Positions 14,266 to 62,718 of a stretch of 64,000 nt of DNA are shown here, piece by piece. The position numbers and the translations under genes are program-made. The stretch's first letter is position 1. Every line of letters starts with the position of its first letter. Under the pieces are notes generated by a model. That model had not been told where the DNA came from. It was given only the letters and a program-made list of their open reading frames with translations, and ran no database searches. This DNA comes from an uncultured Chthonomonadaceae bacterium (GTDB lineage Bacteria; Armatimonadota; Chthonomonadetes; Chthonomonadales; Chthonomonadaceae), in the NCBI GenBank assembly GCA_963817895.1, contig CAWFQB010000001.1, positions 736,001-800,000 on the forward strand, given 5' to 3'.

Positions 14266-17194
14266 ATGAACGACCTGAACATTTTTCATGGCCCCAACGC
14301 CGGATATGCCGAGGAACTCTACGACCGCTACCGGCAAGACCCCGCTTCAGTGGATGCCACAACCCGCGCCTTTTTTGACGCCTACGCTGCATCGTTGTTG
14401 CCACACGCCCGCAATGGAAACGGTCAGGGAAAAGGGAAAAGGGAAAAGGGAACAGAAGAGATACGAGATACGAGATACGAGATACGAGTAGAAGAGAATT
14501 CATCCCTCATCCCTCATCCCTCATCCTTGCCTTCAGAAGCCATGCGCCTTGCCGCCGCCTCACAACGATTGGCGCGGCTGATACGGCAGCGGGGGCATCT
14601 GCTTGCCAGCGTGGACCCGCTTGGGTTGGCGCGTCCCGAAGACCCGCGACTGGAATTGCAGTATCATGGGCTGACCGAGGCGGACCTGGCAACCCTCCCT
14701 GCCGACCTTGTTGTGGGCGGGCCGATTGCGCGCGAAACCACCAACGCGCTGGACGCCATCACCAAACTGCGTGAACGCTATTCCGGCAACATCGGCTACG
14801 ACGACGAACATATTCAGAATCAGCAGGAGCGCTACTGGTTGCGTGAAGCGGCGGAAAGCGGCGCGTATTTTCACCCTTTGAGCAATCAGGTGAAGCGCGA
14901 CCTGCTGCACCGCCTGACCGAAGTGGACGCTTTCGAGCAGTCCATCCACACACGCTATCCCTCCAAAAAACGGTTCTCCATCGAGGGTACGGACATGCTC
15001 GTGCCGATGCTGGATGAGATGATTCGGCTGGCGGGGCGGATGGGAACCCGCGAAGTGGTCATGGGCATGGCGCACCGGGGCCGCCTGAACGTGCTTTGCA
15101 ACGTGCTGGGCAAACCCTACGCGGCGATTTTCGAGGGCTTCAAAACGATGCAGAACGATGACAACGCTTCTGTGTCGGGGCGCAGTTCGCAGGGATTTTC
15201 GGGCGATGTGAAGTACCATCTTGGCTACCAGCGCGCGTTCAAGGAAGCGGGCATTGCCGAAATGCCCATTCGCCTGATTCCCAATCCGAGCCATCTGGAA
15301 TTTGTCAATCCCGTTGCCGAAGGCCACGCCCGCGCCGCGCAGGAACAGCGCAGCCTTGTCGGCCCGCCCGCGCAGGAGCCGCGCGCCTCGCTTCCCATTC
15401 TGATACACGGCGACGCCGCCTTTCCGGGGCAGGGCGTGGTTGCCGAAACCCTGAACATGTCGCGCCTGCCCGGTTACAGCACGGGCGGCACGATCCACAT
15501 CATTTCCAACAATCAGGTCGGTTTCACCACCTCACCGGGCGAAGGCCGCTCGACGATGTACGCCAGCGACCTTGCCAAAGGCTTTGAAATTCCCGTCGTG
15601 CATGTCAACGCGGACGATCCCATCGCCTGCCTTGCGGTATCGCGCATGGCGCACGATTACCGGACGCAGTTCGGCAAGGATTTTCTGATTGATTTAGTCG
15701 GTTATCGCCGTTACGGGCATAATGAAGCCGAAGAACCCCATCTCACGCAGCCGGAAATGTACGCCGAAATCGGCCCGCATAAGCGCGTCCGCGATCTGTG
15801 GGCGGATATGCTGGTGGCGCAGGGCGTGATAACGACCGGCGAGGTGGAGGCGATGTGGGATGAGGTCATGACCCGCATGGACGCCGCATGGAACACGCCC
15901 CATCAGGCGGACGCGCATCTGGAACTCGACATCATTGTGCCGCAAACCGATCCGCGCTACGCGGAAACCGCCGTACCCGCCGCCAAACTGACCGCGTACA
16001 ATGACGTTTTATATGCCATTCCCGAAGGCTTTACGCCCGACGAGAAATTCAATCGCCGCACCCTGCAAGGGCGGCGCGACGGCTTATCCAAAAAGAACGG
16101 CATTTTGTGGGGACACGCGGAAGCCCTCGCGTTCGCGTCCATTCTCGCGGACGGCACTCCCATCCGCCTGACCGGGCAGGACGTGGAGCGCGGCACGTTC
16201 AGCCATCGCCACGCGGTTCTGCACGACATCAACAACGACAGGCGCTGGACGGCATTGCAAACCCTGCCGCAGGCGCGGGCAAGTTTCGGCATCTATAACA
16301 GCCCGCTTTCGGAACAGGCCGCGCTTGGGTTCGAGTACGGTTACAGCGTTCATGTTCCCGAAGCCCTCGTTCTGTGGGAAGCGCAGTTCGGCGACTTCGG
16401 CAACGGGGCGCAGGTGATTATTGACCAGTTCCTCTCCGCCGGTCTTGCCAAATGGCAGATTTCGCCTTCGCTCGTCCTGCTGCTGCCGCACGGCTATCAC
16501 GGACAGGGGCCGGAACACAGCAGCGCGCGTCTGGAACGGTATCTGCAACTCGCCGCCGAGGACAACCTGCGCATCGCCAACTGCACCACGCCCGCGCAAT
16601 ATTTTCATCTGCTGCGCCGTCAGGCCGCCCTGCTGACGACCGATGCCCGCCCGCTGATTGTCATGACGCCCAAAGGCCTGCTGCGCGCTCCGGTTGCCAG
16701 TTCCTCGCTTGCCGACCTGACGACGGGAACCTTTCAGCCCGTGATTGACGACGAGCGGGCGCAAACCCGCGCCCAGAGCATCACGCGCCTGATACTTGTG
16801 CAGCGGTAAAATCTACCTTGACCTCGTGTACAAGGGCGATACGAACAAGGATTTGCGTCCCGAATGGGCGCAGGCCGAGGGCGTGGCGGCTGTTCGCGTC
16901 GAAGAACTGTACCCCTTCCCGCAGCGGGAATTGCGCGACATCATCGCGGGCTACCCGAACCTGCGCGAAATCGTCTGGTTACAGGAAGAGCCGCGCAACA
17001 TGGGCGCGTGGATGTATATGCAGTCCCGTTTGCGCGAACAGGCGGACTGGACGGGCGACCTGCTGTATCGCGGCAGAGCGGAAGCGGCCAGCCCCGCCGA
17101 AGGCTCGGAAATCTGGCACGGCATCGAACAGGCCCGCATCCTGAAGACCGCCCTGGACCCTGTGCCGGTGAGAGAAGCGGTAGGAACTAAGTAG
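14266..17194 (+). CDS. sucA: 2-oxoglutarate dehydrogenase E1 (frameshifted at ~16795)
   Basis: KRFSIEG, GMAHRGRLN, NPSHLE, IHGDAAF and HSSARLERYLQ. Continues as LCSGKIYLDL...WLQEEPRNMGAW in the +1 frame. Confidence 0.95.
14427..14526 (+). repeat. In-frame compound heptamer insert in sucA
   Basis: (GGGAAAA)3 + (GATACGA)4 + (TCATCCC)~4, encoding GKGKREKGTEEIRDTRYEIRVEENSSLIPHPSS. Confidence 0.9.
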
Positions 17195-17329
17195 ATACGA
17201 GATACGAGATACGAGATACGAGGCATCAAAAGAATAGCTTTGTTTAGTTTCCAATAAGCGCGCTCAGGACATAAATGCCCTTTCGCGTTTGCCTCTTATC
17301 TCTTATCTCGTATCTCGTATCTAATATCT
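17193..17329. repeat. Intergenic heptamer inverted repeat (AGATACG)4 ... (CKTATCT)4
   Basis: Complementary heptamer arms between the sucA stop and the sucB RBS. Confidence 0.9.
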
Positions 17330-17344
17330 ATTCTGGAGTGTGCA

Positions 17345-18706
17345 ATGGACGTAGAAATACGGGTACCCCGAAGCGGGGAATCGGTCGTGGAAGCAACGGT
17401 TGGACGCTGGCTCAAGCAGCCGGGCGACGCGGTAAAGGCCAACGAAGAGGTTGTGGAACTGGAAACCGACAAGGCCAACGAAACGGTGAAGTCGCCTGCC
17501 GCCGGTATCCTGCGAACCATCGCGCGGCAAACGGGTGAAGACGTTGCGGTGGATGATGTGCTGGGAACTATTACGCCGGGAGTGGCCGCGTCGAACGGCG
17601 CTTCCAATGGCGCAAACGGTGGAGTCTCCACGCCGCCCGCCCCAACTCCCACGAATACGGGCAACCAGCAGCCCACCACTTCGCCCACGCCCACGATAAC
17701 AACCGCCCCAATCGCCGCCACGCCGCCAATTACAGGAACAGCCGGGGAAGATCTGGGCGATGTCAACGCGCCCGCCACGCCCACCGCCGCCCGTATGCTG
17801 GAAAAGCACGGCCTGACAGCCGCCAATGTCCGGGGAACCGGCCCCAACGGCAAAGTAATGATCGCCGATGTGCAGAATCACGTCGCCACTATGAACATCA
17901 CCACAACCGGGCAGACAGGCACAAGTGCGCCCCCGACTCCACCATTACCAACGCCACCAACCACCAACCACCAACCACCAACCACCAATCCTCTCCTCTC
18001 CGAAGAGCGGCGCGAGATTGTGGAGCCGATGACGCGGATGCGCAGAACCATTGCCGACGCGCTGGTTCAGGCGCAGCAGACGGCGGCCATGCTCACCACG
18101 TTCAACGAGGTGGACATGACAGCCGTGATGGAGATACGGACGCGCCGCAAGGATGCGTTCAAGGAGAAGCACGGCGTCAACCTGGGCTTCATGTCCTTCT
18201 TTACCAAAGCGGTACTCGGCGCGCTGAAAGCCCATCCGTATCTCAATGCGGAGATTCGGGGTACCGACATCATCAAAAAACAGTATTACGACATCGCCAT
18301 CGCGGTCGGCACGGAGCGCGGACTCGTGGTTCCCGTCGTGCGCAACGCGGACAAGCTGACGTTCGCGGGCATCGAAAAAGAGATCGGTTCCCTTGCGTCG
18401 CGGGCGCGCGAGAATAAACTGGGCATCGCGGAAATGGCGGGCGGCACGTTCACCATCACGAACGGCGGCGTGTACGGCTCGCTGATGTCCACGCCGATTC
18501 TGAACGCGCCGCAGGTGGGCATTTTGGGGATGCACAAAATCGAGGAGCGCCCCATCGCCATAAAGGGGCAGGTTGTCATTCGCCCGATGATGTACCTCGC
18601 CCTCTCCTACGACCACCGGATTGTGGATGGCAGCGAGGCCGTGCGCTTCCTCGTAAAAGTGAAAGAACTGCTCGAAGACCCCGAAACCCTCCTGCTGGAG
18701 GGGTAA
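17345..18706 (+). CDS. sucB: Dihydrolipoyl succinyltransferase E2
   Basis: ELETDKA lipoyl motif, GTGPNGKV E3-binding region, [10 protein letters not shown] catalytic motif. Confidence 0.96.
17954..17988 (+). repeat. (CCACCAA)5 in the sucB linker
   Basis: Five exact heptamers encoding [12 protein letters not shown]. Confidence 0.9.
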
Positions 18707-18746
18707 CAGGACAAAAAACACTTGTATTTGCGCTGTTTTTGTCCTG
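18707..18746. terminator. Hairpin after sucB
   Basis: CAGGACAAAAA / TTTTTGTCCTG inverted repeat. Confidence 0.45.
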
Positions 18747-18763
18747 AATAGTGAAAATATCGC

Positions 18764-18792
18764 TTGCAATTTGTTGTGTTCGCTGTTATACT
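18764..18792 (+). promoter_or_regulatory. Sigma70-type promoter
   Basis: TTGCAA-17 nt-TATACT with TGn extended -10. Confidence 0.6.
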
Positions 18793-19007: not shown

Positions 19008-19060
19008 TACATAAGAGCTTGAAGTTGACTTCTCGCATGGCGATATGAAAGGTTTGCAAC

Positions 19061-19376: not shown

Positions 19377-20180
19377 TTGAAAAAGTATTCCGGTTTTACG
19401 CTGATTGAACTGCTCGTTGTGATCGCGATTATCGCGATACTCGCGGCCATTCTGTTCCCCGTCTTCGCGCAGGCGCGCGAAAAAGCGCGTTCCGTTTCCT
19501 GTTTGAGCAACAACAAACAGATCGGCACGGCACTTATCATGTACACGCAGGATTATGATGAGGGCCTGCCCACCTGGTCCGACTACTACTACAATCTTAG
19601 TAACGCGGTCACTCCCGCCGGTTCGGATACCAAAGACCGCTACTGGGATGCGAAACTGCTACCCTATGTTAAGAACGGCGCTCCCGCTTTAAGCGATTAC
19701 GGCGGCGCATGGCATTGCCCGTCCGGGGAGGCCAAAACCAACGTGCGCAGCATGGGCATCAACCAGGCGTTAATTTATGATTTCCATCCGAGTCCTTTCG
19801 GCTACCGGTGCATCTCCCTGGTACAAATCCAAAAGCCTGCCAACATTGTTTTTGCGGGTGACGGTGGCAGCAGCGGGCGCATTGCCCCGCCCTTCTACTA
19901 CCAGGGTTACTATGAGAAGTATATCACCGGCGTACCCTATACCCGCGATGCGCCCTGGCGTCATCAGGATGGCTCCAACTACGTCTACTGTGACGGCCAT
20001 GCCAAGTACCAGAAGGGCGACGTAATATTTCCGCACCCGGTTGCGCCGAGTCAGGTGTATACTCAGGCTGCCGGTGGGGCGTACTGCTCCTATGCGAACA
20101 ACTTCGCGCCAAGTTTGGATGAGGCGCAATGGGGCGCGACGACAGCAAAAACCTATGGCGGCAACTGCCCGCAGCAGTAG
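19377..20180 (+). CDS. Prepilin-type N-terminal cleavage/methylation protein (DUF1559, H-X9-DG)
   Basis: [47 protein letters not shown]. Confidence 0.93.
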
Positions 20181-20206
20181 CCTGACTGTTATATGAATAC
20201 GGTTTG

Positions 20207-20239
20207 TTGCCGAACACGAACAATTACCGTGTTCGGCAA
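20207..20239 (+). terminator. Hairpin after prepilin gene 1
   Basis: 12-bp inverted repeat TTGCCGAACACG / CGTGTTCGGCAA with a T-run nearby. Confidence 0.5.
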
Positions 20240-20502
20240 TGGGCTTTTTCAGGTCGTGCAAATGCGTCGCCTGTCAAATTTTTCGGCGGCGTCCGGCAGA
20301 TTGTTGTAAAAGGGCGCAGGGTATGTTATAATCATTCAGCCCCGCTCATTGTTGCGCGTGTTGCTTTTTCTCGTTGTTGTGCGCCGCGACAATCCCCGCT
20401 GATTGCTATCCCGCACTTATTTTCTTTTTCTTCATCAAAGGGGCGCATGCGCAATTGCCACGCAGCCCCGCCTTTCACCTGCATACAAGGAGAGACACCG
20501 CC

Positions 20503-21324
20503 ATGCAAAAACGCTCCGGTTTTACGCTGATCGAATTGCTCGTCGTGATCGCCATTATAGCGATTCTTGCCTCCATTCTGTTCCCTGTCTTCGCCCAGGC
20601 GAGAGAGAAGGCGCGGCAGGCGACCTGCGTTTCCAACCAGAAGCAGATTCTGCTCGCCATTATGCAGTACACGCAAGATTTCGATGAAATGTTGCCACGC
20701 GGGCAAGTGGGCGCAGTCGCTTGGAGCGGAAACATTCCTGCCGATGAAGCCGTCGGCATGGAAAATGAACTGGATCCTTACATCAAAGCGGGCAACACTT
20801 GGGGGCCTGAGCGCTCCTCCAGCGTTTGGAAGTGCCCTTCAGACACATATAAACGCGATGACTGCGCCGGTGGTCCGGGGGTCGCAACAGGCTACGACAT
20901 CAGCTACGCTTTCACCAACTATGATTCGACTAATCCGCGCAAGTTCGGCGTTTTTGCCTTTAGTGCTAGTGCGGCCGTGAACTCGCAAACCCTATCCGGT
21001 GTCGGCAGGTCCGGTGATACAATCATCATGTGGGATTGGTGGAATCCCCAGGCCTACTCGCGTTATGAGGCTGTGACGCGCACAAACATGGATCAACTAC
21101 TTCAGTTTCCTGCTTATCCCGACTCCGTTCAACTCACCAACTACTGTGGAGACGGATATGATTGGAACTTCTCCTTTGGATCGCATGGCGGAATGACCAA
21201 TTTCGGCTTCATGGATGGGCATGTCAAAGCATCCAAGCGCGAGCAACTCTGGAACGTTGATAGTAGTAAAGTATGGGATTACAAAGCGCCCAACAAGATG
21301 CACTGGAATGAGCAGTACCATTAG
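20503..21324 (+). CDS. Prepilin-type DUF1559 H-X9-DG protein
   Basis: [36 protein letters not shown]. Confidence 0.93.
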
Positions 21325-24537: not shown

Positions 24538-25822
24538 ATGAAACAACCCGAAATGACGTTTACTGCCGCGATACGCGCTCATACCCTATTTGTACTCGGT
24601 TCGCTTGGCCTGCTGCTGCTGTTGGCAGGCTGCGCCGGTCGAACCCCCTCCCCCGAAAACAAAAGCAACTCCAACGCCTCCGCCCTATCTACGCTGGGAC
24701 ACGAACTGCCGGGAACTGCCGCTTCCACTGATATTGCGGACACGCAGGGCTACGTCGGAAATGCGGCCTGCGCCGACTGTCACCAAAAGGAATTCAAAGA
24801 TCATGGCGACAGCAACCATGCCCACGCGCTGCATTTGATGACCCCGGATGATCTGGGAACGTCCGCGCCTCCCCCCGGCCCTCTGACCAATACGCCCACC
24901 ATGCTCAAACTCGCTGACAAAGCGTACTCTGTGGATACCGACCCGCCGCGAGGCAGAGGATTGCCGCTCCAATACGCGTTCGGGGCAGGCAAGTTCTGTT
25001 TTACCTTTGTCGGCGTACTGCCGGACAGCAAAAGTTTCGAGTTGCGCGCCAGTTATGTTCCCAAAACTCGGAAGTGGCAGAAGACACCGGGGCAGGAATT
25101 CCTCGGTCTTTCCAGCTTCGGTATCCGCCATAACACCCAGGTCAGCCGCAAATGTTTCGGCTGCCACGTCATCACGCTTTCCCCAACGGGATTGACGCCC
25201 GAAAAGCGGTTTATGGGTGTGGGGTGTAAATCCTGTCATGGGCCGGGAAACGCGCATATTACGGCGATGCGTTCAGGGCAAGCCGTAACAAGCGCTACCG
25301 ATTTACACATTGACCGGCCTGCAAACTGGGGCGCGAAACGTCAGAACGAGATGTGCGGGCGCTGCCATCGCACCGGGGCGGATGTCAATACGAAGCAGCC
25401 CGATACGGCAGTCACGGCGCGTTTTCAACCCTATGGCCTGATGCTTTCCCGCTGCTTCAAAGAGAGCAATGACACGCTTTCCTGCTCCACCTGCCACAAC
25501 CCCCACCAGAACACCTCCCACGACATTCGCGCCTACGAAGCCGCCTGCCTGAATTGCCACAGAGGAAACAGGGAAGAAAAGGAGAAAAGGAGAAAAGGAG
25601 AAAAGGAGAAGGGGAATTCACAATCGGCAATCGGCAATCAGCAATCGGCAATGCCTTCATCCTTCATCCTTCATCCTTCATCCTTTGCCAAAGCCTGCCC
25701 GGTCAACCCACAGAGTCGGATGTATCGGCTGCCACATGCCCAAACGTAAAATGCTGCCGGATTCCACGCTCGGCACATCCGCCGCCGACCACTATATTCG
25801 AGTTAATCGCGTCAGCCCATAA
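24538..25822 (+). CDS. Multiheme cytochrome c lipoprotein (c554-like), frameshifted at ~25717
   Basis: LLAGC lipobox; CADCH, CFGCH, CKSCH, CGRCH, CSTCH and CLNCH, plus a seventh motif CIGCHMP...ADHYIR* in the +1 frame. Confidence 0.88.
25571..25685 (+). repeat. In-frame compound octamer/heptamer insert in the cytochrome
   Basis: (GGAGAAAA)n + (CAATCGG)~4 + (TTCATCC)4, encoding EEKEKRRKGEKEKGNSQSAIGNQQSAMPSSFILHPSS. Confidence 0.9.
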
Positions 25823-25983: not shown

Positions 25984-26058
25984 ATGTTTGGCTAATCTAC
26001 CATCCTACTGCCGCAGGTAAAAAGGCTTTTGGCAGCAACCGTAAAGGAGTTTGCACGT

Positions 26059-26925
26059 ATGCAGCATCACCCATCCCCGCGCAGGCAATCCGCTTTCACG
26101 CTCATTGAACTGCTTGTCGTGATCGCCATTATCGCGATTCTGGCCGCTATTCTGTTTCCCGTCTTTGCGCAGGCCCGCGAAAAAGCCCGCGCTATCTCCT
26201 GCATTTCCAACATCAAGCAGATAACTCTCGCGCACCAACAGTATATCCAGGATTACGATGAAACCCTGGGGGATCTGGAGGAGGGAGCCATTACCGGACA
26301 GGCGACTACCGCGCACGGCGGCACTCCCGGCTACATTTGGACGGGCTATATGCAGCCCTACATGAAAGGCATACAGGTTGCCTACTGCCCCTCGGCAGGA
26401 ACCAGAATCGTGAAAAGCTATGGCGGCTTCAACTTCACCGGACTTTTATATACTCGCGTAGACCGCAGCCAACTGAACATCGGCATCAACATTGACGGCA
26501 CGATTGGCTGGAACGGCTGGGGCTGCTACAAAAATTACACCGGCAGCAATCCGTACTGTAGTTCACAGTTTTTCACCCTGTCTACCTTCCAGTATCCCTC
26601 GCAAAGCGTGATGTTCGGGGACAGCGTTCCGGTTGATCCCAACGTCGCCAGCGGCAAAAGCTGGTTCATTGACCCGCAGCGCAACCCCGCCATCAACGAA
26701 ATCGGCGCAACCGCCTCGCGGCATCAGGGTGGAACCAACATCGGCTTTTTGGACGGTCACACCAAGTTCTATCCGCGCGCCAATACCCTGATTGTCACAG
26801 ACCAACTCTACAGCTCCGGTGGAACAGGCGAGTGCGTCAACTACAATACGGCCCATGTTTACTGGGACCCGCTGGCGGATGATCCGCAGTTGCTGACGCA
26901 ATGCGCGGGACAGGGATACCGGTGA
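26059..26925 (+). CDS. Prepilin-type DUF1559 H-X9-DG protein
   Basis: SAFTLIELL...[29 protein letters not shown]. Confidence 0.93.
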
Positions 26926-27256: not shown

Positions 27257-27764
27257 ATTGCGTTTGCAGGGCGAACACATCTAAAATACTCGACACCTGT
27301 TACATCCTGGCACATTCGCCCCATGCTGCGCCATCGACCTCCTCCTGATTTCCAACGCCAGAAAGAATGCCTGAAAATAGTAGAAAAACATCTGGTAAAA
27401 TAGCAAAAAAAACGAACTCGTGCTGCATCCGCCTCGTCTAACTACGCAATATACATCTACTTAATAGAGTCTGCTAACTAACTAGGCGACGAGACGCTGC
27501 AAATTCGCAATTCCTGACAACTAACAACTAACAACCTAAACTGAAGGGAGGCGCAAGAAGATGCCTGGTCACACCCGTTCGCCGTAACCATACGGAGGTC
27601 ACGACGCCTCCACTGTAAAATTTGACATAACGAGACACTGGGCTGAAAGCGCTGCATTGCCAATATTTCGACGCTGTCTCTACATACTCTTTTCTCTTTT
27701 TCATTCAAAGGTGTTCGCTCTGGCTGCGTTTGCATGCCTGCTGCAAGCCGCGCCGAAAGTGCAG

Positions 27765-31432: not shown

Positions 31433-33364
31433 CTATTTACGGGCAATCCCAAGCACATTGGGGGCGGGAACGCGGGCATAGCCCGGACCGTTCGGAACAT
31501 ACGAGAACCGCCCGATGGCGCGATCTAATTGTGCGCGGCTCTGATTGTAATCGTAGATGGCGTTGACCTGATTGGTTTCCGCCTGCGTGAGCGCGGCCTG
31601 CGCGTCGCTGACTTCGAGCAGGGGCGAAATTCCCACCCGCGCCACCCCTGCCGTATAGCGGACACGCGCCAGTTGAAACGACGCCCGCGCCTGCGACAAT
31701 GCCTGATTCGCGACCGCCACCTGATCCCGCGCCTGCACTAAATTGAGATACGCCTGCTGCACGTCCAGCGTTACACTGTCAATCGCCTGCCGCTTGTTGG
31801 TAATGGCCGTCGCCTCGTCCGCCCGCGCCTGCTGTCTTCGCGCCCGCGCCAATCCGCCATCATAAAGCGGCAGGGTCAGGGCAATTCCCGCTTCCGGCTC
31901 ATTGATGCGGCGGTTGCCCGTCGAGTTGCGTACGTCGTAGTAGCCGAATGTCAGCGCCACACCCGGCAACAGGCTGCGATTCGCGTACTGTATACCCCGG
32001 CGGGCGGCGGCAATCTGCGCGTCACCCTCCAGCACTTCCGGGCGCGTGGCAAGCGCTTCTTTCAGCAGGGGCGCGAATTCGGGGCCGAGCGTCAACGCCT
32101 GATCTATCACCGTATCCGGGCGGGGCGCGGTCAAATTTACATTCTGTGCCGCAATGGTTTCCGGCAGGGGCGCGTTCGGGATGGCCCCGCTCCCTGTGCC
32201 GGAGGGCGGCACGTCGCTTTGTGGCGTCAGGGGCGTCACGGTCGGCGGAAGGACACCCGGCGGCTCCGCAACCGCGTCGCGATCCGAAATGCGCAGGGGC
32301 GTGGTCACATCAATACCGATAGCGTTGTTGAGGTAGCCGGTATTCAGGCTCACGCCGTTACGCGCCTGTATCACCAGTTTTTGCGCGTTTGCCACATCGG
32401 TTTGCGCCCGTACCACATCGAAATACGCCACCGTTTGTGTCTGGTAGCGCGTGTTGGCGAACTTCAGCCTGTCCAGCGAGTTTTGCAGGTTTTCGGTCGC
32501 CACTCCCACAAGAGCTTCGGAGCGCAGAACGCTGTAAAACGCCCCCTTCACATTGTACACAATCTGGTTACGCGCCCGGTTGATGTCTAATCGAGTCGCC
32601 ACTTCCTGAAACTGCGCCTGACTTGTCGCCGCCCGCAACGCGCCCGAAATATCGAACGGAATGGCAGCTACCGAAGTTCCCCCCGGCTGAAGCGAGTTGG
32701 CAAGAAAGGTTGGGCCGACGGAAACGCCGACATTGGGATTCAGCGCGGCGCGGGTTTCCGAGGTTCGCCCCTCCGCCCGGTACAAAGCCGTCGTGGAAAG
32801 CGCCAGTTGCGGGTTGGTTGCAAGCGCGATCCCTACAGCGTCGTTGAGGGTCAGTGGCTGCTCTGACAAACGGGCGGCCAGATCAATCAGCGCGGGCAAC
32901 GTGGCGGCGGGTTTGTCCGGGCGCGACGGCGGAAAAGCCGCAGGCGGAACAGGCGTTTGCAATCCGGTCGGCGGCGCGTCCTGCGGCAGCAGCGTGACGC
33001 CCAGTGGCGGCGAACCACCCTGCTTTTCCGGTTTCGTATCTGATTTAACATCCGGCTTCGCGCCCTGCTTTGTGTCCGGCTGCGTATTTGCGGGGACGGT
33101 TTGCGCGCTGACGGCATTTGCAGCAAAGCACATCAGGAACAGCGTGTATGTCAGGCCAGGCGTTGAAAACGCCTGTCTGAATGGCCTGCGGCCAAGCGTC
33201 CTACGGACGCAAATCTGTGTGTACAATGTCCTGCGTCCGTAGGACGCTTGGCCGCAGGCCACATAGACGGGTACTTTCAGTACCCGGAACAATGTGCCTG
33301 GCAGCGTACCCGTTTCCCCTCTTCTCTTGTTCGCGTTTCTACCTGTCACTAATCTACTTTCCAT
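31433..33364 (-). CDS. TolC family outer membrane efflux protein
   Basis: PLTLNDAVGIALATNP, LTLPLYDGG and ARVRYTAG...LLEVSDAQAAL; start uncertain (33364 or 33349). Confidence 0.9.
   Translation of the reverse strand: MESRLVTGRNANKRRGETGTLPGTLFRVLKVPVYVACGQASYGRRTLYTQICVRRTLGRRPFRQAFSTPGLTYTLFLMCFAANAVSAQTVPANTQPDTKQGAKPDVKSDTKPEKQGGSPPLGVTLLPQDAPPTGLQTPVPPAAFPPSRPDKPAATLPALIDLAARLSEQPLTLNDAVGIALATNPQLALSTTALYRAEGRTSETRAALNPNVGVSVGPTFLANSLQPGGTSVAAIPFDISGALRAATSQAQFQEVATRLDINRARNQIVYNVKGAFYSVLRSEALVGVATENLQNSLDRLKFANTRYQTQTVAYFDVVRAQTDVANAQKLVIQARNGVSLNTGYLNNAIGIDVTTPLRISDRDAVAEPPGVLPPTVTPLTPQSDVPPSGTGSGAIPNAPLPETIAAQNVNLTAPRPDTVIDQALTLGPEFAPLLKEALATRPEVLEGDAQIAAARRGIQYANRSLLPGVALTFGYYDVRNSTGNRRINEPEAGIALTLPLYDGGLARARRQQARADEATAITNKRQAIDSVTLDVQQAYLNLVQARDQVAVANQALSQARASFQLARVRYTAGVARVGISPLLEVSDAQAALTQAETNQVNAIYDYNQSRAQLDRAIGRFSYVPNGPGYARVPAPNVLGIARK
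33182..33261. repeat. GTAG-type REP doublet with 30-bp perfect inverted repeat
   Basis: TGGCCTGCGGCCAAGCGTCCTACGGACGCA (33182-33211) / 33232-33261. Confidence 0.88.
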
Positions 33365-35111
33365 TTGAGACGACATGCACGGGCATGCCCTCCAGTAAAT
33401 CATCGGTGGGGTTTTCCACAAGTGGCTGATTGGCGTTCAAGCCCTGCGTAATTTCCACTTCCTTGCCGTAATCGCGGCCCATGCGCACCGTCTGAAAATG
33501 CAGTTTGTGGTCTTTTGTCACGGTTGCCACGCGCGTCCCCTGCCCGTCGATGATGAGCGTGTCGGCGGGAACCCGCAGCAGCGGTTTGGCCTGCTTGCCT
33601 GTAAACTCCACCTGCGCGTACATGCCCGGTATCAGCGCGTTGTCGGGGTTGGCAAGGCGCACTTCGGTCAGCAGGGTGCGCGAACCCGCGTCCAACGCGC
33701 CCGCCGACCGCGATACCACGCCCGTATAGACTCGCCCCGGCTTCTCCTGAATGGTCACGCGCGCGGTTTGCCCGACCCGGATGGTGTCCATATTTGATTC
33801 GGGAACGTTGACCTGAATACGCAGCATGTCGGTGCGGGCGATCCCGAACAGGCCGGAATGGGGAACCGTGCTGCCCGGATCGTTAGACGCGCTCGAACTG
33901 CTGCCCGCATTGATGAGCGCGCCCGTATCCACGTTGCGGGCGGTAATCACGCCGTTGAACGGGGCCACAATACGCTCGAAACCCTTCAGCGCGGCGTAGC
34001 GGTTGACGCCCGCTTTGCTGGAAGCAATCGTTGCCTCCGACGCCCGGACATTGGCCCAACTCGCCGTGACAGCGGCCTGCATCGCCCGGATGCTGGCCTG
34101 ACTGGACAAAATAGCGGACTGCGCCGCGCCAACTTTCTCCTGCGCTGCGGCAATATCCGCCTGCGCCGCAGCCACATCGCCCTGACGCGAGCCGACGTTT
34201 GCCTGCGCCGCTTCCACATCCGCCTGCGCCAACTCGACATCCGCCTGCGCCCCGGTCACGCTCGACTGCGCGGTTTCAAAAGCGGCCTGCGTCTCGTCCA
34301 GCTCCTGCCCGGATACCGCCCCTCCCTTTGCCAGCTGCTGCCAGCGCTTCCACGTTTTCTCCGCAAGGGCGTAGCGCGTTCGCGCCCGTTCCTGATCAGC
34401 TTTGCGGGCGTTGATTTTTTTGCGGGTCTGCGCCAGCATCGCCTGCGATTGCGACAGCGCGCTTTCCGCTTCCAGTTCTTTGGCTTTGGAATGGGCAAGG
34501 TCGGCGCGGGCGGCTTCCCGATTGGATTGGGCGCGGGCGAGTTCGGCCTGCGCCTGCGCGACATTGGCCTCCAGTCGGGCAACATCGGCCTGCGCCTGCT
34601 CGCCCCCCGCCTGCGATTTCGACGTTTCCGCTTTGGCCTGCATCAGCTGCTCATCCACTTCGGGCGCTTCGATTTCGGCCAGAACCTGCCCCGCTTTCAC
34701 GCGGGAACCGATGTCTACAAACCGATGGCGCAGATAGCCGCCTGTCCGCGCATTGATGGTCGTCTCTTCCACCGCCTGAATGTTGCCGGGTAACACGATT
34801 TCCCCGCCGCCCTTTGTATACTGCGGCAGAACCACGTTAACGGGCGTGACCGTATCGTGTTCCACAACGGCCATTGCGTCGAGTTTCTTTTGCTGTTTCA
34901 GGCGCGGCATAATTCCAAGCGCGAGCAGGCCGCCGACAAGCGCGACACCGGCAGCCGCGCCGACAATCCGCTTGCCCGGACCGGCGGGTGGCTGCTGCGC
35001 CGGATGGTTGCGATGCTTGCTGTGCTGCTGATGCTGCGATTTATGCGCGTCGTGTTCCTCATGGGCGGGCGCGTGGTTTACGGCGTCAGGGGATGCGTGG
35101 GCAGAATTCAT
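33354..35111 (-). CDS. RND efflux periplasmic adaptor (MFP) with long coiled-coil hairpin
   Basis: INARTGGYL...VDIGSRVKAGQVLAEI, IVAPFNGVITARNVD and LIPGMYA. Confidence 0.92.
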   Translation of the reverse strand: MNSAHASPDAVNHAPAHEEHDAHKSQHQQHSKHRNHPAQQPPAGPGKRIVGAAAGVALVGGLLALGIMPRLKQQKKLDAMAVVEHDTVTPVNVVLPQYTKGGGEIVLPGNIQAVEETTINARTGGYLRHRFVDIGSRVKAGQVLAEIEAPEVDEQLMQAKAETSKSQAGGEQAQADVARLEANVAQAQAELARAQSNREAARADLAHSKAKELEAESALSQSQAMLAQTRKKINARKADQERARTRYALAEKTWKRWQQLAKGGAVSGQELDETQAAFETAQSSVTGAQADVELAQADVEAAQANVGSRQGDVAAAQADIAAAQEKVGAAQSAILSSQASIRAMQAAVTASWANVRASEATIASSKAGVNRYAALKGFERIVAPFNGVITARNVDTGALINAGSSSSASNDPGSTVPHSGLFGIARTDMLRIQVNVPESNMDTIRVGQTARVTIQEKPGRVYTGVVSRSAGALDAGSRTLLTEVRLANPDNALIPGMYAQVEFTGKQAKPLLRVPADTLIIDGQGTRVATVTKDHKLHFQTVRMGRDYGKEVEITQGLNANQPLVENPTDDLLEGMPVHVVSNGK

Positions 35112-35143: not shown

Positions 35144-38100
35144 TTATGGCAAGGGCGCGGCGGCAGGTTCTGTGACCATAAACGGGGGCTTGCGCCGCAA
35201 AATGCTGTAAATCACCGGCACGAACAGCAGCGTGGAGACGGTTGCCAGTATCAGGCCGCCGATAACGGCGCGACCGAGCGGCGCGTTTTGCTCGCCGCCC
35301 TCGCCCAATCCCATTGCCATCGGCATCATTCCCAAAATCATGGCGAGCGCGGTCATCAGGACGGGGCGCAGGCGCGTACAGCCTGCCGCCATTGCCGCCG
35401 TCAGCGCGGTATCGCCCTCCAACTGCCGGTCATTGGCGAATGTCACGACAAGAATACTGTTGGCGGTGGAAACGCCGATACACATGATCGCGCCCATGAG
35501 CGCGGGGACGCTGAAAACCGTATGCGTGATGAACAGCATCCAGATAATGCCGCACAATGCGCCGGGAAGGGCGCTAATGATAATCAGCGGGTCTACGAGC
35601 GACTGGTAATTGACCACCATGAGCAGGTAAATGAAGATGATAGAAAACAGCAGCCCCATGCCAAGCCCGATAAACGAGGTTGTCATGCTTTCCACCTGCC
35701 CGCGCACTACAAGGGATGTGCCTTTGGGCAAATGCGGCTGCATCTGTTTCAAGACCGCGTTGATGTCGCGGGACACGCCGCCCAGATCGCGATCCTGCAC
35801 GTTGGCGTAAATGTCGTAAGTGGGCTGTACATTGTAGTGGTTGATAACTTCGCTGGTCTTGCGCCGCTGCAAAACCGCCAGATTGCTCAACAATTGGGGT
35901 GTCCGCCCGCCGCTTGCCGTTACGGACGTGCTTTGCAGCGTGTCCACGCTGTTCAGGCGGTACTGCGGCGTTTGCACGGCAACCAGATAGCTGACGCCGT
36001 TTTTGGGGTCGAGCCAGTAGTTGGGGAACGTTTGCCCGCTGGACGCGAGCGAAATCAGCAGGTTGTTGGCAACATCGCGCTGTGTCATGCCGAACGCCTG
36101 CGCGCGTTCGCGGTTCACATTCACGCGCAATTCCGGCATATCCACGACCTGATGAATATGCGTGTCCGCCGCGCCCGGAATACGCCGGACACGGGCCGCG
36201 ATCTGTTCGGCAAGCGCGAAGTTGGCCGGGTCGCGTCCCGTCACCTGAATGTCAATGGGCGCGGGCAGGCCGAAGTTCAAAATCTGGCTGGTAATGTCGG
36301 CGGGCTGAAAGAAAAACGTCAGTTCGGGAAACTGCTGCGGCAATTGGCGGCGCAGTCCCTCGATAATATCCGCCGTCGGGCCGTGACCCTCCTTCAGCGT
36401 AATCAGAATCTCGCCGTCCGAAGGCCCGATGCTTCCGGTCGTGCTGTACGCGAAGTTGACGCCGCCCACAGGCAGGCCGATGTTATCCAGTGTCAAATCC
36501 AGTTGATCGGCGGGAATGGATTTTCGGATCGCGCTTTCCACCCGCGAAAACAGCCGCTCCGTTTCCTCAATGCGCGTTCCGGCAGGCGCGCGAACGTGCA
36601 GCCGGAATTGTCCCGCGTCTACGGACGGGAAAAAGTCCTGCCCGATGAACGGCAGCAGACACGCCGACCCGACAAACAGCAGCGCGTACAGCGCCAGAAT
36701 CCCCACTCGATTCGCCAACGCCGCCCGCAGTTTCTTCCGATACCACCCCAAAAACACATCAAAGAACCGATTGAAAATTTGATGGACGCGCCATACAAGG
36801 TCGCCAGAGGGGGTGTTGGGCAGGGATGAGGGATGAGGGATGAGGGATGAAGTCTCCTCTTCTCCTTTTCTCCTTTTCTCCTTTTCTTCTGTCTTCTCCC
36901 CTTCTGAATTTTCGTGTCCATGCGCGTGAAGATGGACTTCCTTGCCCAAAAGCAGGTTGCACATCACGGGAATGTAGGTGCGCGACAGGACGAACGAGGC
37001 GATCATGGCGTACACGACGGCGAGAGCAAGGGGCTTGAACAGGGAACCCGCCGCGCCGCTGAGGAATAGAATCGGCACGAACACGATACAAATGGCGAGC
37101 GTGGCGACAAGGGAGGGCGCGGCGATCTGCTGGCCTCCCTCCACAATGGCGTGAAACAGAGTCTTGCCCATTCCCAGATTGCGGTAGATGTTTTCGATGG
37201 CGACAATGGCGTTGTCCACGAGGATGCCGACGGCAAGGGCGAGTCCGCCCAATGTCATCACGTTCATCGTTTGCCCGGTCGCGCCTAAAATCACAATCGA
37301 ACACAAAATAGCGAGCGGAATGGACGTGGCGACAATCAGGGTGCTGCGCCAACTGCCCAAAAACAGCAGAATCATCAGCGCGGTCAGGGCGGCGGCAATC
37401 ACGCCCTCGCGCACAACGCCGTTGACGGACGCCCGCACGAAAAAAGACTGGTCGGAGAGAATATCCACGTTCAAACCGGGCGGCAGGGTAGACTTGATTT
37501 TAGGAAGCACGGCTCGGACACCGTCCACGACATTGAGCGTACTGGCGTTGCCGCTTTTCAGAATCGTAAGCAAGACCGAGCGCCTGCCGTCAATGTTGAC
37601 GATGTTCGTTTGTACCGCGAAGCCGTCATGCACCTGCGCCACGTCGCGCACATATACCATTGCGCCATTTACCTGCTTGATGGGCAGGCCGTTGAGCAGG
37701 TTGATGGCGTCGGGGCTGCTGTTCAGGCTGACCGTGTATTCGCGGCTGCCCATTTTGGCCGTGCCGGAGGGCAAAATTAAATTCTGCGCGCTGATAGCCG
37801 CGCTCACATCGTAGGCCGTCAACCCCTTTGCCTGAAGCGCCTGCGGGTCCAAATCCACCATGATCTGGCGCGGCTTGCCGCCGTACGGCGAGGGCGTGGA
37901 CGCGCCGCGAACCGTCGCAAGCTGCGTACGCACAAAGTTCTGCGCGTAATCGTAAATCTGCGACTCGGACATGGTTTTGCTGCTGACGCCAAGCTGCAAA
38001 ATGGGGACGCTGGACGCGCTGTACTGAATAATCAGGGGCGGCGTGATACCGGGCGGCAGGGTTTTGAGCAGAGTTTGACTGGTAGCCGTAAGCTGCGCGA

Positions 38101-38416: not shown

Positions 38417-38686
38417 AGGTGTTTCAGGTAAACAGGGTTTCAGGTAAATAAGTAAATAACCCAAGTTGCTACCTTAAACCGTGTTTGAGATAGCGGCGTA
38501 CCAAAAGTAGCTCTTTGCGCCTGTAGCTTCGAGATTGAGAAATCAAGGTAGCAACTTGGGTTAAATAGGGTGAGCGTCGTCAACAATACAGAGGCAGGCG
38601 TGAATGTTTTTGCCTGCCGCAAGTAAGGGCAATTCTTCTTGCCCGAAAAGTTCCGACAGGGAAAACTTTTTTGCGCGTTGCCCATA

Positions 38687-38787
38687 TTCGTCTTGAACCA
38701 TGATTTATGTGATTAACGGATTACCATGATTGTGCCGGTCTTCATCATGGTAGTCCTGAAATCATCAAAATCATGGTTCAAGACGAA
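38687..38787. repeat. Intergenic palindrome with 20-bp perfect terminal inverted repeat and internal GATT/AATC units
   Basis: TTCGTCTTGAACCATGATTT / AAATCATGGTTCAAGACGAA. Confidence 0.85.
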
Positions 38788-38934
38788 GCGCGTATTTTCT
38801 TTTTGCGGCAGGGAACTTTCCACGCCTGCCGGTACGCCAATACAAGCAGAACGCGAAAACACCGTTTGAGTAACCGCGCGCATCATACTGTCAACGATGT
38901 CAGCGATTGTTTGCTTCGGAGAGCGTCATCTGTT

Positions 38935-42392: not shown

Positions 42393-42466
42393 AGGGAAGG
42401 AAAAAGGAAAAAGACGAAAGGAAAAAGAACAAGTGTTTATGTTAGTATACCTGTTGGAGAATTGAA

Positions 42467-44061: not shown

Positions 44062-44344
44062 CACACGGAATTACCTCACCCCAACCCCTCTCCTAGCCGC
44101 GCAACGCGCCAGGAGAGGGGCTTTTTTTGACTGATACTACATTTTAATGGTAAGAGGTTGGTGTGTGCAGGGTATTATATGTAATGCTAATTTAGGTTCA
44201 TGCGCTATTTTGATATAAAAAATTTTTATTCATTAAAACTTACTAAAAATCTATATAAGAGCGAAAGTTTTACGAATCAAAAAACCCCTCTCCTGGCGCG
44301 TTGCGCGGCTAGGAGAGGGGTTGGGGTGAGGTAATTCCGTGTGT
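44061..44344. repeat. MITE-like unit: ~60-bp perfect inverted repeats of REP-like palindromes around an AT-rich core
   Basis: ACACACGGAATTACCTCACCCCAACCCCTCTCCTAGCCGCGCAACGCGCCAGGAGAGGGG and its exact reverse complement ending at 44344. Confidence 0.88.
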
Positions 44345-58374: not shown

Positions 58375-58439
58375 ACTATCCTGAGTGTATGCGTGAAGAA
58401 AGGATTGGGACGGGCGTCGCGTTCTCCCGACAACCTGCT

Positions 58440-59108: not shown

Positions 59109-59123
59109 AGGAGCCGAGACTAT

Positions 59124-59867: not shown

Positions 59868-59883
59868 CGAGTGCCATCCAACA

Positions 59884-60522: not shown

Positions 60523-60731
60523 TTCAAACTTCCTTCCTCACTACTTCCTTTTTGTTTGCGTTTCCTGCCACTGACGCGCGGGAAACATGCTATTATTTAG
60601 AACGCCTGAGCCGAGGTTTTTGCAGCATTTTCTAATGGGATTTGCGCGTGTTTTTTACCTGCTCTTGTGGCGAGGCAAGGCTTGATAGCGAGTTGACGCG
60701 GCTTCATGCGGCTTTTGAAGGACGAATTATT

Positions 60732-62023
60732 CTGATTACACAACGCGAAGGGAACGCGCCCACAGCCGCCGCTTCCTCCCATTCCATTCTGTGGCAGCGG
60801 CGGATGCTGGCATTTACATGCTGCGCGATGATGTTTTTGTATGCCGCGTATTTGGGCGCGATTGGCGTGCTGCTTCCCGCTGTGGGCAAAACGTTCGAGC
60901 TTGGTTCCGCCGCGCAGGGGCGTTTGTTTCCCGCCAATTTCGTCGGCTTCATCCTGATTGTGCTGATTGCCGCGCCCGCGTCGGATCGCTGGAACCGCAA
61001 AACGGTGCTGATGCTCGGACAGGCGATGTTTGTAACCGGCTTGATCGTGTTCAGCCGCGCGCCTTCGTTCGGTGTCGCGCTTGCCGCGTCCCTGCTCATC
61101 GGCGGGGGAAGCGGCGCGGTGGGCGTGATTTCCAGCGCGTTGGCCTCGGATTTGTATCCATTGCGGCGTGGCGCGATGCTGGCGGCGATTCAGGTGGCGT
61201 TCGGATTGGGAGCCGCGCTTGGACCGGGATTGGGAAGCGTCCTGCTGTCGCATCAAGTCTCGTGGCGCTTGCTGTACGCGGGCGCGGCGTTCGCCGGGTT
61301 CGCCCTGCTGCTGGCGTTACAGGCGCAGAAGGAAGAGGGGGAGACAAGGAGAAGTGGAGAAGAGGGAAAAGGGAAAAGGGAAAAGGGAATAGGAGAATCC
61401 CCCTCAACTATCAACTATCAACTATCACCTCCCTCAACTATGCTCTCGCTGCGAAGCAACGCCCGGTACAACTGCTGTGCGTGATGCAGATTTGCTATGC
61501 GGGGGCTGAGGTTGGCTATTTCTCGTGGATGCCTACGTATTTTCAGACACAACTGCCGGGAGGCGCAGCCCTTGCGGGCGCGGTTATCAGCGTGTTCTGG
61601 ATTGCTATGACAATCGGGCGCAGTTTGACCGGCAAGTTTATGGGGCAGGCAGGCTTTATGCGCTCGTGCGCTTATCTGGCGACTGCGGGAGCCGTTTGCG
61701 CCGGAGTGACGCTGATCTGGCATAATCCCACAGTGGTTTTAGCCTGTATAGTTTTAACAGGCCTGTGCTTTGCGGGCATTTTTATTCTGATGAGCGCGGA
61801 AGCGAGCGAGCGGTACGCGCATAGTCTGGGCGCGATTTTCGGCTGCATCGTGGCGTGTGGCGGATTGGGAACCTCGCTGATTCCCTGGGCGGTTGGCGCG
61901 GTTGCGTCCACGAAAGTTGGTTGGACAGGCGGGCTGATGCTGGTTCCCCTTGCGGCGTTGGGCGTCGCCGCCTGCGCAATCCTATTGGGGCGTGAAAAGC
62001 AGTACGAGATTAGCCGCGAATAA
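60732..62023 (+). CDS. MFS transporter split by a frameshift inside a heptamer insert
   Basis: TM1-6 lie in the 60642 frame (SDRWNRK motif A) and TM7-12 in the 60791 frame. The switch falls within 61328-61440; start uncertain. Confidence 0.85.
61328..61440 (+). repeat. Compound heptamer insert in the MFS central loop
   Basis: (GGGAAAA)3 GGGAATA + (TCAACTA)3 with further degenerate units. Confidence 0.9.
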
Positions 62024-62041
62024 ACGCGAATGAACGCGAAT
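62010..62041. repeat. Decamer repeat (ACGCGAATNA family)
   Basis: TTAGCCGCGAAT AAACGCGAAT GAACGCGAAT; supplies the MFS stop codon; relative at 28337-28368. Confidence 0.8.
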
Positions 62042-62092
62042 AGCCATTCAGTCAGGGGAGAATAAACATCATGTCCTACGTACATCTTATAT

Positions 62093-62150
62093 CTAAAAAG
62101 CCCCTCTCCTAGCGCGTTGCGCGGCAAGGAGAGGGGCTGGGGTGAGGTAT
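62093..62150. repeat. Solo REP-like palindrome
   Basis: Near-identical to the right arm of the 44061-44344 element. Confidence 0.82.
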
Positions 62151-62171
62151 TTAGTTTTGAGGAGTAAGGAA

Positions 62172-62718
62172 TTGGGCAAGATTATGGGGCTGGATGTGGG
62201 GGCGAAGACGATTGGGGTCGCATTTTGCGAGGAGGGGACGCGGCTGGCGTTTCCGGGGAAAACTATCTGGCGGCAGGAGGGCAAAAAGCGCGACATGGCT
62301 GCTCTGCGCCAACTGGTTGCCGAAAATGACGTGAAGCGTATCGTGGTCGGAATTCCCCTGCTTTCCGACGGCTCGCGCGGCCCGCAGGCGGAAACCATCG
62401 AAGCGTTTATTGCCACGCTGCGCAACAGCGTCCGTATCCCCATTGTCACGCAGGACGAGCATTTGTCCACGCAGGAAGCTGAACAACTATTGTTCGCCGC
62501 AAACCGCCCCCGCGCCGAACACAAACGCACCCTCGATTCCGTCGCCGCCGCGCTGATTCTGCAATGGCATCTTGAGGAAGAAGAGGGGGAGAGAGGGAAG
62601 AGGGAAGAGGGAAGAGGGAAAAGAAAAGATACAAGATACAAGATACAAGATACAAGAAGAAGAGAACTCTTTCCTTTTCCCTCTTCCCTCTTCCCTGAGT
62701 GGGGCTGCCGATGTCTGA
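62172..62718 (+). CDS. ruvX: Holliday junction resolvase-like RuvX/YqgF with heptamer-derived C-terminal tail (apparent frameshift)
   Basis: MGLDVGAKTIGVA, IVVGIP, QDEHLST and DSVAAALILQ. As written the ORF runs to 62891; the inferred natural stop is 62716-62718. Confidence 0.9.
62576..62695 (+). repeat. Compound heptamer insert at the ruvX 3' end
   Basis: (GGGAAGA)3 GGGAAAA + (AGATACA)4 + TTTTCCC(TCTTCCC)2; the outer arms are complementary. Confidence 0.9.

Follow-up and report, generated by a model that had tools for sequence, protein, structure and literature searches.

The window, the whole 64,000-nucleotide stretch of DNA analysed here, comes from the genome of an uncultured Chthonomonadaceae bacterium (G000) and carries six genes that a preliminary description had reported as unrelated carriers of short tandem-repeat blocks. 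The gene labels were upheld by Pfam (E1_dh, 2-oxoacid_dh, multiheme cytochrome, ACR_tran, MFS_1, and RuvX), and the six blocks were found at the positions and with the units claimed for them, as were the peptides GKGKREK, EKEKRRKGE, and SSLIPHPSS in the window translations. Two genomes were used for comparison, a sister species of the same genus (G002, 1.9 of ~8 Mb covered) and a relative in which heptamer arrays are scarce (G001, 0.48 of 6.6 Mb covered).

The sucA gene (E1; 14266..17194, +) is interrupted near 16794 by a one-base frame break that lies outside its cassette. This compound cassette in the N-terminal linker (14426..14527, +) consists of AGGGAAA x3.9, GAGATAC x4.4, and TCATCCC x3.9, is in frame, and falls in the interval separating the two domains matched in solved E1 structures; it has a twin elsewhere in the genome (91% over 107 nt). 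The same site holds GGGTGTC/ACACCCG arms in G002 and no block in G001. Contigs of relatives end at the sucA block, none spanning it, and a SucA self-search returned 29 self-hits. The sucA-sucB spacer contains a matched cassette (17190..17329, no strand assigned) with AGATACG x4.3, a loop of ~70 nt, and the inverted arm, for which a long hairpin of -60.7 kcal/mol was predicted by folding without a shuffle control; in G002 this site is taken by AGGTGTC/AGGTTTC arms around an unrelated loop. The SucB linker carries a single right-type arm, CCACCAA x5 (17954..17988, +), and a three-array cassette in G002, both in frame.

In the multiheme cytochrome gene, a compound cassette (25571..25685, +) of AGAAAAGG x4.5, CAATCGG x4.6, and CCTTCAT x4.6 sits between a CxxCH motif and a CPVNP motif, and a one-base frame break follows ~30 nt past the block, outside it. 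Two G000 paralogues have different cassettes at the same position and a third has none. The RND pump cassette (36822..36905, -) is composed, on the coding strand, of a GGAGAAAA-type arm and then a TCATCCC arm, in the loop equivalent to AcrB ~506-516; a different cassette occupies this site in G002 and in one G000 paralogue, and G001 has none. An AlphaFold2 model of the RND protein, built with no alignment, had a mean pLDDT of 39.5, too low to be informative. The central loop of the MFS protein contains a compound cassette of a purine tract, GAAAAGG x5, and TCAACTA x3.4 (61328..61440, +), in frame with the upstream gene half (ORF 60642-61484); a one-base gap near 61452, just past the block, breaks the gene. 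The compound cassette in the RuvX C-terminal tail is made of GGGAAGA x4.7, AAGATAC x4.6, and CTCTTCC x4.3 (62576..62696, +). The ruvX frame is shifted by one, either in the block or past it, and reads over mltG, and the G002 orthologue stops at the mltG start. In G002, the MFS and ruvX blocks are near-identical to each other. The one-base frame breaks in these four window genes are probably assembly errors; G000-G002 alignments have 1.7 non-3n gaps per kb, and indel errors were seen in both assemblies.

Four further features lie in the window: an intergenic matched cassette (652..740, no strand assigned; AGGGAGT/TCCCTAC) with one variant unit mirrored in both arms; an intergenic cassette after mltG (63790..63880, no strand assigned) with a GTATTCG arm and a degenerate partner, where G002 has GGTGTTCA arms; a single left-type AGTTGTT arm at a stop codon (9431..9476, +); and a single AAGGAAA arm (42397..42427, +), also found in G002. 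The window blocks take the place of part of the native linker and are not mere additions to it.

Throughout the genome, 1,724 arrays of period 7-9 were grouped in 1,108 blocks. Tandem Repeats Finder gave 1,123 rows at period 7, 544 at period 8, and 116 at period 9, with 45 at period 6 and 25 at period 10, and no arrays in 2 Mb of simulated sequence (fifth-order Markov), so that the genome-wide scan called for by the preliminary description found period 7-9 arrays far above chance and the neighbouring periods rare. Copy number was modal at ~4.5 (616 of 1,087 heptamer arrays). Polarity was strict, with a G-rich left and a C-rich right arm (410 vs 1), and the outer units were exactly inverted in 238 of 499 left-right blocks vs 25.5 after shuffling. 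Both arms shared one variant unit in 25 of 33 elements (8.1 when permuted). Terminal inverted repeats were present in matched elements and absent from most compound coding blocks. More than 30 unit families occur together, and most of them lack G-tracts; certain families dominate each genome, a single one occurring in up to 166 arrays. A full-length twin of at least 90% was found for 50 of 248 compound blocks, on another contig in 37. No one conserved palindromic sequence defines the family, as the window blocks are mosaics whose best genome matches are 70-91%. The modal copy number, the dominant unit families, and the sucA twin bear out the proposal that units were spread across loci by a trans-acting process and not by local slippage. 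Array density was 62/Mb in G001 vs 231 and 359 in the other two genomes.

The family is mainly intergenic, with 220 of the 1,108 blocks inside open frames, in 196 genes, where they lie in frame within unrelated conserved genes. Stop-bearing units were largely kept out of ORFs. Of 25 orthologous coding sites, 19 were open in both species despite different cassettes. Both observations indicate selection on translation. With copies modal and the frame kept, these are not phase-variable repeats. As had been described, the blocks were located in variable linkers. They are under selection for open frames, and the coding ones are likely translated as floppy, disordered, dispensable linkers.

Comparison with the sister species showed that sites persist and contents do not. 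When G000 blocks were mapped to G002, 147 of 173 positions were occupied (12.9 by chance), with a unit shared at only 20, and each of the five window genes that have an orthologue kept the site and changed the content. Gene junctions were occupied in G002 in 62 of 73 cases (85%) where G000 was occupied and in 40 of 178 (22%) where it was not. Boundaries of orthologous blocks agreed to within a few bases; flank identity was 81-85% to 15 nt before the arm and fell over the last 14 nt to 76% and then 64% (147 arms), and arms of different families aligned in register at ~62% identity. Filled/empty pairs were flagged in 17 of 137 and 4 of 96 cases, including clean gains at empty junctions, and no target duplication was seen by eye in 14 candidates, at least 2 of which were not truly empty. 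The preliminary description had proposed deposition with persistence only in tolerant linkers, which predicts independent hits: the linkers were confirmed, but G002 also holds a block at the sites of 30 of the 33 intragenic blocks that could be mapped, so independent deposition is not supported. As judged from the aligned sequences, sites are inherited and their contents replaced between the two species; fixed positions holding differing blocks suggest that the sites have likely been overwritten repeatedly by copying between blocks.

The loops between arms were also compared. Among 38 orthologous long-loop pairs, most were no better matched than unrelated loops, 4 beat all unrelated loops and 13 fell in the top 14%; ~3 were flipped. 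Loop family tracked arm family, and the loops were later resolved into diverged families. No twins occurred among 270 loops, the maximum pairwise value being 0.65-0.81 in the families shown, which counts against recent whole-element copying. In the ACTACTG family, the arms are 98% perfect and mean loop identity was 56%, less than the 66% found at four-fold sites between the species. Outer arm units were no more alike than inner ones, indicating that crossovers within arms are rare; one clear hybrid was found. Retention by base in the loops was A 0.70, C 0.67, G 0.74, and T 0.65, with a transition bias, and adenine-specific mutagenesis was rejected. Several other origins and functions for the loops were tried and discarded. 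Capture of foreign or local DNA yielded 31 non-self genome matches for 250 G000 spacers, nearly all of them repeat arms, and no excess match to their own flanks (the search covered the genome itself). Promoters were not enriched relative to dinucleotide shuffles. For mini-ORFs in translational coupling, an ATG near the arm was found in 47 sense, 45 antisense, and 35.5 shuffled cases, and an open frame in 15, 24, and 12.3 of 162, respectively. Searches for TIGR02436 gene remnants gave 9 real vs 3 shuffled hits by blastn and 4 vs 6 by tblastx, of 270.

Genes of the TIGR02436 (four-helix-bundle) and GxxExxY families had been suggested as candidates for flanking by such arrays, and both were found flanked by them. 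Arrays stood on both sides of 70 of 76 evaluable TIGR02436 relatives, in several phyla, vs 14 of 72 for a control window. G000 has two TIGR02436 ORFs between inverted repeats (contigs C1 and C2), and the window blocks have none; by eye, both genes are in a protein-coding and not an rRNA context, the C2 gene following a protein gene. At the positions of three gene-bearing G002 cassettes, G000 shows either a cassette lacking the gene, a nested cassette of 9-mers, or an unfilled site, so that gene-bearing and gene-less forms evidently swap at one site; the two forms have their arm design in common. The two unit families carried by a pair of TIGR02436 proteins of 73% identity are those found to correspond at 14 of 24 orthologous arms. 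No TIGR02436 hit was obtained in the 0.48 of 6.6 Mb of G001 examined; the link between protein and arrays is based on three genomes and a single pair of orthologues. The closest solved structure was the five-chain XCC0516 (PDB 2GSC).

The cargo scan yielded only TIGR02436, GxxExxY, two IS-like ORFs, and host genes, with no recombinase, nuclease, or polymerase tied to 7/8-mer cassettes and no transposase between arms; G000 has three Y1 transposase genes, none among these results. Its single RVT_1 gene, which we take to be retron-like from its motifs, lies on contig C6, apart from the TIGR02436 genes, and the same gene was found in G001. A further genome (G005) gave no RVT_1 hit and contains a long-armed gene cassette.

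The comparison thus displays a fixed anatomy, persistent sites, replacement reaching a few bases beyond the arms, coupled arms, and frame and stop selection. On this basis, we consider it about evenly balanced that inherited sites are overwritten by copying between cassettes, assisted by the four-helix-bundle protein, with the blocks serving as dispensable disordered linkers. An incoming cassette would pair with the resident arms in register, where even arms of different families are ~62% alike, and would replace them whole or arm by arm, which would give rise to compound blocks. Fold-back template switching would then equalise both arms and flip the loop, new sites would occasionally be gained at stop-to-RBS junctions, and the protein would likely aid copying by binding the arms. 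More tentatively, and with some doubt, this may be a new class of mobile system, in which a pentameric four-helix-bundle protein recognises arms of ~4.5 units, five purine-G motifs per arm serving one subunit each, and drives homing into existing cassettes with edge-to-edge replacement. Such homing would need no transposase, target duplication, or sequence-identical target, and would keep rewriting ~4% of host proteins in their linkers, plus a fifth of gene junctions.

Concerted evolution by the host alone, in which ordinary replication and repair cause template switching and ectopic gene conversion at hairpin-prone sites and TIGR02436 is a passenger looped out and tolerated between arms, appears rather unlikely. 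Template switching, as described in the portions of PMC8604942 drawn on here, homogenises arms and inverts spacers, which matches the arm coupling and flipped loops; no dedicated enzyme was found, and just 2-3 TIGR02436 genes stand against over a thousand blocks. However, host processes alone fail to explain the fixed copy number and strict polarity, how families only ~62% alike replace one another, the clean gains at junctions that were empty, and arms around 70 of 76 gene relatives in several phyla. MITE-like elements inserted independently in each lineage and kept only in tolerant places, shared sites being convergent, would account for the filled/empty pairs, the location in variable loops and junctions, and the paralogous cytochromes struck at one position; the 85% vs 22% junction occupancy, the shared intragenic sites, the coinciding boundaries, and the lack of target duplication by eye make this improbable.

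Diversity-generating retroelements use a four-helix-bundle accessory factor (Avd), and error-prone cDNA of a cassette RNA might replace the resident by comparable mutagenic retrohoming. In-place replacement, pristine arms around twinless loops with a near star-like spread, and the five-chain XCC0516 structure are consistent with this, but loop changes are not adenine-specific, no reverse transcriptase lies beside the accessory gene, the lone retron-like RVT_1 gene also occurs in array-poor G001, and the G005 cassette exists without an RVT_1 hit; we give this reading little chance. Local slippage, ancient conserved linkers, or an assembly artefact are very improbable. The assembly does have indel errors at the gap rate above, but in an independent genome both the sites and the anatomy recur with other units, and copy number, polarity, and widely shared unit families speak against slippage. 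G001 and family orthologues lack the segments, and these comparisons already go most of the way to refuting the three readings.

Several known systems resemble these cassettes. Rickettsia palindromic elements are dispersed repeats that are read in frame within unrelated conserved genes, where they occupy surface positions, and are sequence families with a consensus palindrome; the present blocks share the in-frame location, but are mosaics of mostly unmatched arms that are replaced between species. MITEs and REPIN/RAYT systems comprise non-autonomous inverted doublets that descend from a form carrying a gene, whereas here no target duplication, identical long-loop copies, or transposase between arms was seen. 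Geobacter metallireducens has paired tandem hepta/octanucleotide arrays (Aklujkar et al. 2009, PMC2700814), and Xanthomonas and Nostoc have convergent arrays of GGGAATC and GGGGA(C/T)T, respectively (Rehm et al. 2015, PMC4692102). These likewise have about four 7-8 nt units, opposite-strand pairs at variable distance, intergenic and intragenic positions, and adjoining IS elements, and were read as regulator sites or quadruplex formers; content exchange at fixed sites, frame/stop selection, the TIGR02436 link, and more than 30 unit families go beyond the parts of those reports considered here. In the Nostoc trnL intron P6b, a heptamer-armed stem-loop was repeatedly replaced whole by another repeat class (Kaasalainen et al. 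2015, PMC4476775); as presented in the sections used, this concerns one non-coding locus and two classes, unlike the hundreds of loci, many classes, coding linkers, and gene-bearing forms found here. Intervening sequences of 23S rRNA contain an S23p four-helix-bundle ORF within terminal inverted repeats, and the homologue from Xanthomonas forms a homopentamer (Warrier et al. 2016, PMC4990558; PDB 2GSC). In contrast, both G000 genes are neighboured by protein genes and have arms made of tandem repeats, and the window blocks are gene-less; RNase III excision without ligation (PMC4990558) would be inapplicable to translated blocks. TAACTGA heptamer runs adjoin start and stop codons in Beggiatoaceae, Cyanobacteria, and Bacteroidetes, their stop-bearing orientation being excluded from ORFs (MacGregor 2015, PMC4679880); that work deals with a single directly repeated unit, for which it proposes a role in translation, and its main text does not contain "four helix bundle".

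Both such heptamer repeats and the replacement seen at a single Nostoc locus have been published; in the open literature searched, no paper was found on genome-wide overwriting or on a link between the repeats and TIGR02436. The overwriting reading would join two long-standing orphans, the heptamer repeats and the TIGR02436/S23p family, into one testable system, for which the genome pair offers named donors, recipients, and empty sites. The pair shows that linker DNA of essential enzymes (SucA, SucB, the RuvX tail, the RND loop, and ~196 genes in all) can be exchanged wholesale between sister species with frame and stops alone under selection, so that new low-complexity peptide sequence can arise by a route other than slippage or ordinary transposition. 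For annotation, motifs such as SSLIPHPSS and EKEKRRKGE create false homology between unrelated proteins.

The six heptamer blocks that the preliminary description had recognized in the window, within the sucA, sucB, multiheme cytochrome, RND, MFS and ruvX genes, were borne out by TRF and direct reading, and Pfam backed its gene labels; as it had counted, five of the six are compound, the sucB block being a single arm. The same two methods revealed further blocks at 652-740, 17190-17329 (the sucA-sucB spacer) and 63790-63880 (after mltG), together with single arms at 9431, 27517 and 42397. Genome-wide, the host assembly (G000; 7.48 Mb, 14 contigs, 81% completeness) contained 1,724 arrays with periods of 7-9, counted without overlap, in 1,108 blocks, and no arrays were found in 2 Mb of Markov-simulated sequence. 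Earlier papers (PMC2700814, PMC4692102 and PMC4679880) already describe such repeats with a bias towards four units, set in convergent pairs and also occurring inside genes, and whole replacement of a heptamer stem-loop in one Nostoc intron is described in a passage of PMC4476775. The blocks are real and are an unusual form of a repeat class that is known yet still lacks an explanation, and they could credibly lead to a mobile system of a new kind.

The anatomy of the cassettes was then quantified. The modal array had ~4.5 copies (rounded), in 616/1,087 heptamer arrays of G000 and 305/541 of the same-genus genome G002. A G-rich first arm and a C-rich last arm were found in 410 of 447 compound clusters, and the opposite order in one; owing to this polarity, the G-rich arm faces the centre on both strands. 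AG or GG was present in 97% of left units (raw percentage), and the outer units were exactly inverted in 238/499 left-right blocks, compared with a shuffled expectation of 25.5. By simple ad hoc gene calls, 145/165 matched elements (inverted arms around a loop of at least 30 nt) were intergenic and 103/248 compound blocks with short joins were coding. Genome-wide, the left arm includes a stop in several of the commonest unit families of matched intergenic elements, so that successive frames meet a stop whichever side the element is entered from, and many of these elements start at the stop codon of the upstream gene.

For comparison between genomes, 1.90 Mb of G002 (four-fold sites 66% identical to G000) and 0.48 Mb of G001 were used. 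At sucA, sucB, RND, MFS, ruvX, the sucA-sucB spacer and after mltG, G002 carried a cassette with other units at the same place, and G001 had ordinary linkers at the first five. No orthologue of the cytochrome gene was found in the fetched comparison DNA; two of its paralogues had different cassettes at the equivalent codon and a third lacked one. When G000 blocks were mapped to G002, 147/173 sites were occupied (chance 12.9); in the reverse mapping 142/257 were occupied (chance 10.9), with a unit in common at 21 of the 142 (4.2 permuted). Junctions were occupied in G002 at 62/73 where G000 was occupied versus 40/178 where it was not, and mapped intragenic blocks at 30/33. Flank identity stayed above 80% up to 15 nt before the arm and then dropped to ~62% within it. 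Among 38 long-loop pairs, homology was recognizable in about four loops with orientation kept and in about three with it flipped, and the rest scored as unrelated loops do. Filled/empty candidate sites numbered 17/137 and 4/96; in the 14 printed candidates, at least two of which are not truly empty, most elements occupied the interval separating one stop codon from the following start, with a few bases replaced, and no target duplication was seen by eye. Independent insertion into tolerant sites is an improbable explanation of this shared occupancy.

Open frames of 196 of the 4,913 called G000 genes enclose 220 blocks. A heptamer run passes through every frame, and stop-bearing units should therefore be barred from ORFs. 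With half of each family count as denominator, left arms lay inside ORFs in 13 of ~374 cases for stop-bearing units versus 209 of ~489 for stop-free ones, and right arms in 3 of ~189 versus 175 of ~673. Stop-containing units are almost wholly kept out of ORFs. The AAGGATG left arm includes TGA, and a variant unit removing it was present in 7/7 ORF copies read in sense but in just 5/79 arms elsewhere. At 67 orthologous sites with coding flanks, the block was open in at least one species at 25 (counting one unrelated 9-nt coding repeat and one site without an array in G002) and in both at 19, where the cassettes differed in content and length. The six open/closed-discordant sites are in line with the general frequency of non-3n gaps separating the two assemblies, 1.7 per kb. 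The predicted peptides favour E, K, R and S, with A, L and V scarce. The SucA block falls within residues ~43 to ~100, clear of the two segments that match solved E1 chains; the RND block corresponds to the loop at AcrB 506-516; the others fall in the SucB linker, the MFS central loop, the RuvX tail and the cytochrome inter-heme linker. Coding repeats are known from Rickettsia; our literature search found no paper on genome-wide overwriting of coding linkers. One-base frame breaks, probably assembly indels, were seen in sucA (16794), the cytochrome (~25715), MFS (~61452) and ruvX (~62696) genes, and comparable breaks in G002 fall elsewhere, in its sucA and RND genes. A coding repeat of 21/42-nt period in an HlyD-family gene (34119-34251) probably encodes a typical coiled coil with no connection to the cassettes.

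The preliminary description had raised TIGR02436 (four-helix-bundle) and GxxExxY genes as families that might be flanked by such arrays, and all six in G000 (two and four, respectively) indeed had inward-facing arms, of 8-mers around TIGR02436 and 9-10-mers around GxxExxY. Among 76 evaluable TIGR02436 relatives from several phyla, a set rich in Mesorhizobium and not independent, 70 had arrays on both sides and 48 matched units. Of three G002 TIGR02436 cassettes, one mapped in G000 to an AGATACG element that carries no gene but has identical edges, another to a nested 9-mer element and the third to an empty junction. The closest TIGR02436 protein pair (73%) occupied different sites carrying the two corresponding unit families. 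G001 gave no TIGR02436 hit; its GxxExxY matches numbered six and its array density was 62 per Mb, several of the arrays being 9-mers. No paper linking heptamer repeats to TIGR02436 was found in the literature search. The nearest solved structure is XCC0516, with five chains, described as a homopentamer in part of PMC4990558; its five subunits may correspond to the ~4.5 arm units. No enzyme emerged, and all that the cargo scan of cassettes contributed was host genes and IS-like ORFs sitting within loops. ORFs inside cassette loops, between matched arms, at C14:676233-677752 and C3:336298-337392 of G000 are presumably IS-like transposases by sequence type. At two orthologous sites the GxxExxY gene persisted, with both 9-mer arms changed together (C6:254503 versus L130) or the left arm alone (C3:444820 versus L117). 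The retron-like RT at locus L112 (G000 C6:131448-135080) is conserved across G000, G001 and G002, and the unit of the compact cassette upstream of it differs between G000 and G002.

Near-copies were also shared among elements. Fifty of 248 compound blocks had a full-length twin at ≥90%, on another contig in 37; the sucA block matched C1:5599 at 91% over 107 nt, and the G002 MFS and ruvX blocks, separated by 1.2 kb, were near-identical. Slippage or artefact is a very improbable source of these blocks. Replacement prefers kin unit families: G002 AGTAGTC arms corresponded to G000 GTAGAT-type arms at 14/24 arms. Loop families track arm families, and both differed between G000 and G002 at one site. 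In 214 elements, both arms carried the same variant unit in 25/33 cases (8.1 expected), which template switching, described in PMC8604942 as making arms alike, would yield; selection for pairing would do so too.

We favour, at roughly an even chance, a joint account in which the four-helix-bundle protein would bind the arms, an incoming cassette would pair in register with resident arms and take their place completely or partly, fold-back synthesis would equalize arms and flip loops, and selection inside genes would retain only open, stop-free versions. Concerted evolution by the host only is a less likely alternative. G000 has a single RVT_1 gene, also present in G001, whose product we take to be retron-like from its motifs. 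Error-prone retrohoming is unlikely. In the AGTAGTC family (16 core of 21 members), arms were 98% perfect and loops averaged 56% similarity (75% at most), their changes being of the usual transition-biased kind; this contrast resists explanation, and either arms are refreshed oftener than loops or loops mutate above the neutral DNA rate.

Other repeats in the window include a ~430-nt stretch at ~27270-27700, possibly an IS remnant, with more than 20 matches among those listed in G002. Dispersed repeats at ~33155-33297, ~38453-38568, ~38687-38788, ~44070-44335 and ~62095-62152 are REP-like in appearance; several of them match in either orientation, and copies are numerous in G001 and G002. The segments 19377-21324 and 26029-26925 belong to a large paralogous family, and N-methyl and DUF1559 domains were found in 26029-26925, the member that was scanned.
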